Assembly: GCA_030390025.1 (NCBI GenBank)
Contig: CM059452.1
Location: forward strand, 9,548,001 to 9,612,000
Direction of reading: 5' to 3'
Origin: Squalus acanthias
Lineage: Eukaryota
Length of the DNA stretch: 64,000 nt
How positions within the stretch are numbered: the first letter of the stretch is position 1; every line of letters starts with the position of its first letter. The notes below the pieces were generated by a model that was not told the origin of the DNA, made no database searches, and was given only the letters and a program-made list of their open reading frames with translations. Shown piece after piece: positions 43,185 through 44,184 of this stretch. The position numbers and the translations under genes are program-made.

Positions 43185-43662
43185 ATGAGGTCGGCGATTT
43201 CTCTCATTCTGTTGCTGGCTTTCTTATCCCGTGAGTAGTTTTTATTGTCCAAGTCTCTCACTGTTACTGTCTCAGTGTAAGTCTCTCTCTGGAATATTAC
43301 AGAGTCAGGAATCATTTCACCAGGATTAATCCTCGGAGTTTTTGATTGTTTTTACAGGTGTCCAGTCGGATGACGTGTTGACTCAGCCAAAGGCAGAGAC
43401 CAGGAGTCCCGGAGGCTCCCTGAGACTGACCTGTAAAACCAGCGGGTTCAATCTTGGCAGCTATTACATGAACTGGATCCGGCAGGTTCCCGGGCAGGGG
43501 CTGGAGTTCGTGGCTCACTACTACACTTCATCGGACAAAGCCTACGCCCCAGGGATCCAGAGCCGATTTACTGCGTCCAAAGACACTTCAAACAGCATCT
43601 TCGCTTTGGACATGAAGAACCTGAGGACCGAAGACTCCGCCATCTATTACTGTGCAAGAGAC
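43185..43662 (+). CDS. IgM VH (leader 43185-43230, V exon 43358-43662)
   Basis: [69 protein letters not shown]-23-ACAAGAACA at 43663-43701. Confidence 0.96.
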
Positions 43663-44091
43663 CACAGCGAGAGGAACCAGGGCTGGACCCGTACAAGAAC
43701 AGAACGAGGGGACATTCAACAACTTCCATCATAATCTGACGGTCAGTAATTGTATTAAATGCGATCTGAACAGCATTGTTCAGAACCAGACCATACGCCG
43801 CTTCTTACTGAATTAACACACTGAAAATTCAATGGTAAAAAGCTAGCGCAGTAACCGATGTACTGAGGAGAGGTTTTGGCTGTGCTCATGTTTACTGTTC
43901 ACAGTGTCAGTAATGGCAGAGCTGGACTTAATGCTCGTCTCAATATGATTGATACCTGGAGGGAGTTGGTTGGGACTGTGTTCACTTTCTATTAAGTTGT
44001 GTAAACTGTTGGATAAATTCTAAACCAGATCAGAAGTGAATGTCTATTTGAAGTGAATGTTGAGAGGCGGCACTGCACAGGGAGTGAGTGC

Positions 44092-44119
44092 AGTATTTGT
44101 GTGGGTTCCTCTCACTGTG
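44092..44119 (+). other. 12-RSS upstream of pre-joined DJ
   Basis: AGTATTTGT-GTGGGTTCCTCT-CACTGTG. Confidence 0.9.
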
Positions 44120-44184
44120 GTACTACAGGGGTATACTCCACCTCGACTACTGGGGACAAGGCACCATGGTGACGGTGACTGCAG
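44120..44184 (+). CDS. Germline-joined D(D)JH (YYRGILHLDYWGQGTMVTVTA)
   Basis: D1-like GTACTACAGGGGT, then ATACT, fused in frame to JH with no internal RSS; donor GTAAGA. Confidence 0.9.

Follow-up and report, generated by a model that had tools for sequence, protein, structure and literature searches.

Joining of cartilaginous fish immunoglobulin genes in the germ line has long been known. The partly or fully joined heavy chain (IgH) forms named in the sections of the reports cited here are VD-J, VD-DJ, VDD, and VDJ (PMC5192425, PMC4279169, PMC2193156). In nurse shark, IgM1gj is a fully joined, RAG-independent heavy chain of the IgM class with three C domains (PMC5192425, PMC4279169), and IgNAR type III, reported as neonatal, keeps V free but carries a germline fusion of D1 and D2, with fewer somatic joints and a restricted CDR3 (PMC4622739). 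Among the NS4 light chains, joined and split genes are closely related, the joints can be dissected, and several independent events are recognized. Lee et al. 2000 make the case that the joining took place through RAG in the germ cells of sharks and describe the joints of the heavy chains as too diverged and hard to dissect (PMC2193156). Joined or partly joined genes of nurse shark are reported to be expressed early (PMC2193156, PMC4279169, PMC4622739). A free V next to a fused DDJ is described as a somatic form: in nurse shark IgM, Malecek et al. 2008 report V-DDJ (2R) that is clone-specific and absent from erythrocyte DNA, and in these data every intermediate is represented and V-D1 joins are the most frequent (PMC2435157).

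Here, we describe an IgM cluster in a 64,000-nucleotide stretch of Squalus acanthias DNA (contig CM059452.1, positions 9,548,001 to 9,612,000; hereafter the window), in which V is free and D1, D2, and J are fused. Its configuration is identical to that of the somatic V-DDJ of nurse shark, but here it is inherited and duplicated (PMC2435157). Like the germline-joined IgH clusters, it has some joints fixed and its remaining RSSs intact, whereas in the joined forms named in those sections it is V that is joined (PMC5192425, PMC4279169, PMC2193156). IgNAR type III would be the best functional analogue, with its free V, its germline D1-D2 fusion, its fewer somatic joints, and its restricted CDR3, although it is another isotype, retains three joints rather than one, and does not have J fused (PMC4622739). 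The gene resembles IgM1gj in being a germline-joined heavy chain of the IgM class, but it has four C domains and one join pending (PMC5192425, PMC4279169); in place of a fully joined VDJ and a missing CH2, V is free and CH2 is present. It resembles NS4 in the close relation of joined to split genes, the dissectable joints, and the several independent events, but NS4 is a light chain with one joint (PMC2193156). In the main texts of the literature searched, V-DDJ appears solely as a somatic form; the primary horn shark and skate reports lie outside this scope and an earlier report is possible. A germline V-DDJ is expected in principle, and it is new in the literature searched.

Organization of the cluster and its fused segment

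The plus strand of the window holds a complete IgM cluster, composed of a leader, VH, a facing pair of RSSs, the fused segment, four C exons, a secretory tail, and TM1 and TM2; all positions below are on this strand unless stated otherwise. A putative proximal promoter region (42985..43184) contains about 190 nt that are near-identical by eye to the promoters of eight split clusters. The leader exon (43185..43230) starts with the ATG at 43185, and its joint to the VH exon (43230 to 43358, GT..AG) is present in a contig of sequencing run X8. The VH exon (43358..43662) is open, contains both cysteines and the framework tryptophan, matches the Pfam V-set (E 1.2e-16), and is closest to horn shark HV01_HETFR (74% identity, E 2.7e-42; 10 hits among 34 candidates). 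Cmu1 (48283..48582), Cmu2 (49542..49853), Cmu3 (52063..52371), and Cmu4, which runs into a secretory tail with a penultimate cysteine (52888..53279), all match the C1-set. TM1 (56509..56636) and TM2 (56778..56786; two codons and a stop) are defined by splice ends and open frame; the 42-aa piece of TM1 gave no family match in a Pfam search. Compared with solved structures, Cmu4 and the tail give best full-length matches that are mostly mu chains; an IgG hybrid and an alpha chain rank high as well. The J-to-CH1 splice is found in contigs of four of four runs, and these RNA-like contigs, which back the leader-V splice point as well, come from paralogues or relatives.

From CH1 through CH4 with its tail to TM1 and TM2, the exons are bounded by AG/GT, and the spliced frames are open for both the secreted and the membrane form, which bears out the initial annotation in its view that these exons are intact. 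In sum, one shark-type IgM VH, two D (as remnants), one JH, four C1-set domains, a tail with the penultimate cysteine, and TM exons lie in a single cluster. LINE fragments lie near 49040-49390, 50880-51180, and 60100-61260. Tandem repeats of a 27-bp type, an approximately 52-bp type, and simple sequence flank the cluster (32400-36500, 53700-54800, and 62000-64000) and are partly common to paralogous clusters.

The VH 23-RSS (43663..43701) has the heptamer, spacer, and nonamer found in most split clusters. It faces a 12-RSS on the minus strand (44092..44119; nonamer 44092-44100, spacer 44101-44112, heptamer 44113-44119) that is orthologous to the D1 5' RSS and has the heptamer and nonamer of the split clusters; its spacer differs from theirs by two changes, one of which is private to the window copy. 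Mismatches to the consensus number 1+2 for the V-RSS and 0+2 for the D1-RSS, and the split clusters are no better. The initial annotation called the 12-RSS live; the signal agrees with that of the split clusters, and its activity, which is deduced from this identity, is putative. The two heptamers are 457 bp apart, and the 12-RSS abuts a 65-nt segment (44120-44184), YYRGILHLDYWGQGTMVTVTA, with a GT donor at its end; the layout of VH, 23-RSS, about 460 bp, and a 12-RSS directly on a 65-nt segment had thus been described correctly. A degenerate RSS-like pair, missed by the RSS scan, lies near 43873-43910 in the conserved V-D1 spacer.

Alignment to unjoined paralogues confirms that the segment consists of D1, a D2 remnant, and J. 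The first 12 of the 14 nt of D1 (44120..44131), untrimmed at the 5' end, match the D1 of split locus L061 exactly. The next 6 nt (44132..44137) equal the start of the L006 D2, and the remnant is 7 nt long if G44131 is counted as D2, this one G at the D1-D2 joint being assignable to either segment. Two bases (44138..44139) are absent from both D2 and J in the split loci compared and probably represent N-addition. The remainder (44140..44184) is JH trimmed by 3 nt at its 5' end, equal to the J of split L005 from the fourth base. Between V and J there is no D1 3' RSS, D2 RSS, or J 5' RSS, just as first noted, and the paralogues have these signals; all six are present in 12 of 44 classified paralogues. 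An originally long J that carries a 12-RSS was considered and ruled out, as the unjoined J of split clusters measures 48 nt to the donor and is preceded by a 23-RSS of its own (22 in the C130 group).

RAG coding joints are characterized by trimming of the ends and N-addition. Each of the four lost coding ends lies within 0-6 nt of the heptamer position in split paralogues, and both fused joints are 12/23-compatible (D1 with its 22-spacer to the 12 of D2, and the 12 of D2 to the 23 of J). Because the ends lie so close to heptamers, the joins are compatible, and trimming and two untemplated nucleotides are present, a RAG origin is reasoned. The gene thus carries an inherited D1-D2-J fusion, most likely made by two germline RAG joints, and one V(23)-to-DDJ(12) join in a B-cell precursor would complete it.

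The window also holds elements of T cell receptor type. Five TCR-type V segments with a 23- or 24-spacer RSS lie at 23240-31280 on the plus strand, like the IgM cluster; open frames are found in three of them (RSS at 23559, 24901, and 28089), and the block 25340-33028 is conserved at 95% upstream of a second V-DDJ cluster, L002. On the minus strand, a V-D-J cassette (7960-8740) has V already joined to D, in the order VD, 12-RSS, 23-RSS, J; from its VNAR-like V and an extra cysteine we take it to be NAR-TCR-like. Of 17 distinct NAR-TCR-like cassettes compared, 5 are VD-J and 12 have split spacing, and the search table hints at fully joined ones also. A TCR-delta-type V lies at about 4391-4710 on the minus strand, and behind it (3300-4390) the 23-RSS is part of a tandemly repeated unit of about 60 bp, present in four perfect copies (4390, 4327, 4265, and 4142) and some twelve degenerate ones. 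The occurrence of TCR-type V exons between IgH clusters has already been reported (PMC12227049).

Joining states across the array

A DNA search of the genome gave at least 65 matches (40 of 95 candidates scored), so the locus counts are lower bounds; a J pattern was found at 41 sites. Of the 49 loci collected, 44 were classified (L001-L030, L044-L048, and L056-L064), some of which, on small contigs, may be alternate haplotypes. The other five (L049-L053, on contig C911) lie outside the anchors and were excluded; they are VH-like at 71-73% identity, lack a match to the IgM anchors, and possibly form another heavy chain family. Twelve of the 44 clusters are split, in the order V-23, 12-D1-22, 12-D2-12, 23-J (22 in the C130 group), with D1 of 14-15 nt, D2 of 12-14 nt, and J of 48 nt. 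The other 32 are partly or fully joined: VDDJ (14), VDD-J (7; a class assigned by missing signals, in which some members may be V-D2 joins), VD-DJ (4), V-DDJ (3), V-D-DJ (2), V-DD-J (1), and VD-D-J (1). All eight joining states are thus present, six of them on contig C29, where 19 of 26 clusters are joined. States in which V is joined are commoner than those in which it is free, which is the direction of the somatic data: V-D1 joining is commonest among the joined states here, as it is among the nurse shark intermediates in the sections of that report cited here (PMC2435157). Trees of the array show mosaic ancestry. Two fully joined VDDJ pseudogenes with V stops (L047 and L048, near 206.9 and 208.2 Mb of the 208-Mb contig C3) lie outside the main array.

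Some joined clusters look like parent and product of stepwise joining. L008 (V-DD-J) and L003 (V-DDJ) have in common the D1-D2 joint, the V end, and the loss of CH1, and are 94-97% identical from J to CH2, with weak tree support for the pairing. L025 (VD-DJ) and L027 (VDDJ) have both earlier joints in common, and the V tree pairs them as sisters (100/99); L027 would then be derived from a VD-DJ gene of the L025 type. The L027 VDDJ (C29:8647396-8648018) is out of frame, and its J carries a short deletion flanked by two copies of a 6-nt word. V-DDJ thus arose at least twice. Both L003 (C449) and L008 (C3620) have an open VH, intact CH2-CH4, and no CH1 match between J and CH2; they are possible CH1-less heavy chains or pseudogenes.

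The V-DDJ state is not uniformly preserved, which counts against a special role for it. The window copy alone is intact among the three: the VH of L002 has a 28-nt frameshifting deletion, and L003 gives no CH1 match. It is possible, if somewhat doubtful, that the same germline RAG origin left a neutral by-product, competent on paper and rarely or never used, with the fixed half of its CDR3 unselected. The two damaged copies fit this account, and so does the open DDJ frame. The initial annotation stressed that the D-D-J is in frame, and the segment is indeed open; this is hardly informative, since it is the V-D join that fixes the frame and about 92% of 20,000 simulated joins, with ranges of trimming and N bases of our own choice, are free of stops. 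We therefore dropped the in-frame status as a sign of selection on the V-DDJ gene. Joined heavy chains of horn shark, moreover, are stated not to be detected in the section of the NS4 report cited here (PMC2193156). Against a neutral by-product stand the ten exons, splice sites, both RSSs, and promoter of the window copy, all intact, and the frame of the fully joined genes: of eight distinct VDDJ junctions, seven keep the reading frame (P = 0.0026 for an expectation of one in three), though two of the seven are now on V exons with stops. This excess suggests selection on joined genes in general.

Inheritance of the junction and how it arose

Fusion of D1, D2, and J by two RAG joints in the germ line, the reading that we prefer, has to be weighed against accounts that dispense with RAG or with the germ line. 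The segments could in principle have been brought together by ordinary deletions, or by unequal crossing-over where D flanks resemble one another, and the G that fits either side of the D1-D2 joint, as well as the mosaic ancestry of the array, would agree with this. Two deletions of about 390-400 bp would be needed, however, with all four ends no more than 6 nt from heptamers, compatible by the 12/23 rule, and with two untemplated nucleotides between them, and the RSS-to-RSS pattern recurs in 32 of the 44 clusters; we consider such a fusion very unlikely.

The junction is inherited rather than somatic. The pattern of a D1 signal followed by J has three matches genome-wide and none for a reversed control, and therefore it is not a chance arrangement. 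One of these V-DDJ clusters, L002, lies inverted 220 kb from the window cluster on the same 20.9-Mb contig. The 65 nt are the same in both copies, the preceding 460 nt contain 12 differences, and the following 1000 nt contain 10, so that flanks differing by 1-2.6% enclose an identical segment. When compared with seven paralogues, four of the 12 upstream differences are private to the window copy and eight to L002. Within about 6 kb around the V-DDJ the copies are 98-99% identical, further out 92-97%, and the J-C intron of L002 carries an insertion relative to the window cluster. Both trees place the two copies as sisters (100/99 and identical). Their neighbours differ by tree (L008/L017 upstream, L019/L023 downstream), and hence a direct split ancestor is not nameable. 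The same junction in two diverged copies means that it is inherited, whether the copies are paralogues or diverged haplotypes of the one assembly in which this V-DDJ junction was examined.

It is for this reason that an assembled somatic intermediate with two rearrangements, from a lymphocyte or thymocyte, is highly improbable. V-DDJ is real in nurse shark spleen and thymus, but the somatic junctions, as presented in the sections of that report cited here, are unique to a clone (PMC2435157), whereas here one junction stands in two diverged clusters, each with private changes. The somatic origin that the initial annotation allowed for is thus set aside, and its proposal of germline D1-D2-J joining is supported, with RAG as the agent that we infer: junctions at RSS positions, 12/23 compatibility, trimming and N bases, and the same junction in two diverged loci are all found. 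A rearranged mRNA copied back into the germ line, by retroposition or cDNA-mediated conversion, for which this analysis found no support, is scarcely credible, as the gene keeps its leader intron, its J-C intron, and the V-D1 spacer together with both RSSs, and a mature transcript would show V joined and J spliced to CH1.

Twenty sequencing runs were also compared by word content (best share of words 0.27). Their contigs drop rare variants, and the runs may come from other species than Squalus acanthias. Two DNA-type runs contain about one-fourth of the words, so absence of the junction there is uninformative. In four RNA-like runs over 43150-48650, V-to-J joints that land at 44140-44149 are among the 15 joints listed of 84. 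Over 44070-44189, contigs of X8, X12, X10, and X3 have zero cover at 44130-44133 and none of those listed bridges the junction, which is evidence neither way. The junction letters of L020/L022 and of L064 are present, by eye, as loose ends in contigs of X3 and X10; the two runs are labelled as different organisms, of which at most one could be the source of the assembly. These matches support inheritance of joined genes in the family rather than of the window junction itself.

Working of the gene and its meaning

Under the preferred reading, two RAG-mediated coding joints would have fused D1, D2, and J in a cell of an ancestor's germ line or early embryo, with TdT presumably adding the two bases at the D2-J joint; the fused segment was then duplicated into the second cluster, L002. 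Heptamers and nonamers at V and D1, like the proximal promoter, agree with those of split clusters. In a B-cell precursor, one join rather than three would be needed: VH(23) would be joined by RAG to DDJ(12), 457 bp would be excised, and the join would be productive about one time in three. Diversity would come solely from the V-D1 joint and later hypermutation, the CDR3 would end in a suffix of YYRGILHLDY, and the product would be membrane and secreted IgM.

A bolder reading, which we hold to be unlikely in its full extent, takes the array as a frozen record of germline RAG in all eight states, in NAR-TCR-like cassettes as well, and the V-DDJ gene as a selected, half-innate heavy chain. Such a chain may give early B cells a head start (one join against three) and a public CDR3 end, and its 12-RSS could take a same-strand TCR-type V from 12-20 kb upstream.

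Since the horn shark work, it has been asked whether RAG is still rewriting the germ-line antibody genes of sharks, and whether partly joined heavy chain genes are useful. With joined and split genes 84-96% identical and every state present, the array makes the action of germline RAG on heavy chains dissectable. Germline joining has recurred stepwise across the array, and the V-DDJ gene is one of its products, not a singular design; the full set of joining states with its stepwise lineages is a more valuable find than the single gene. The gene is nevertheless unusually clean, and within this complete series its fixed junction is a built-in barcode: its use by tissue and age could be measured in repertoire data, and with it the head start that fewer joins may give under heavy chain exclusion in sharks.
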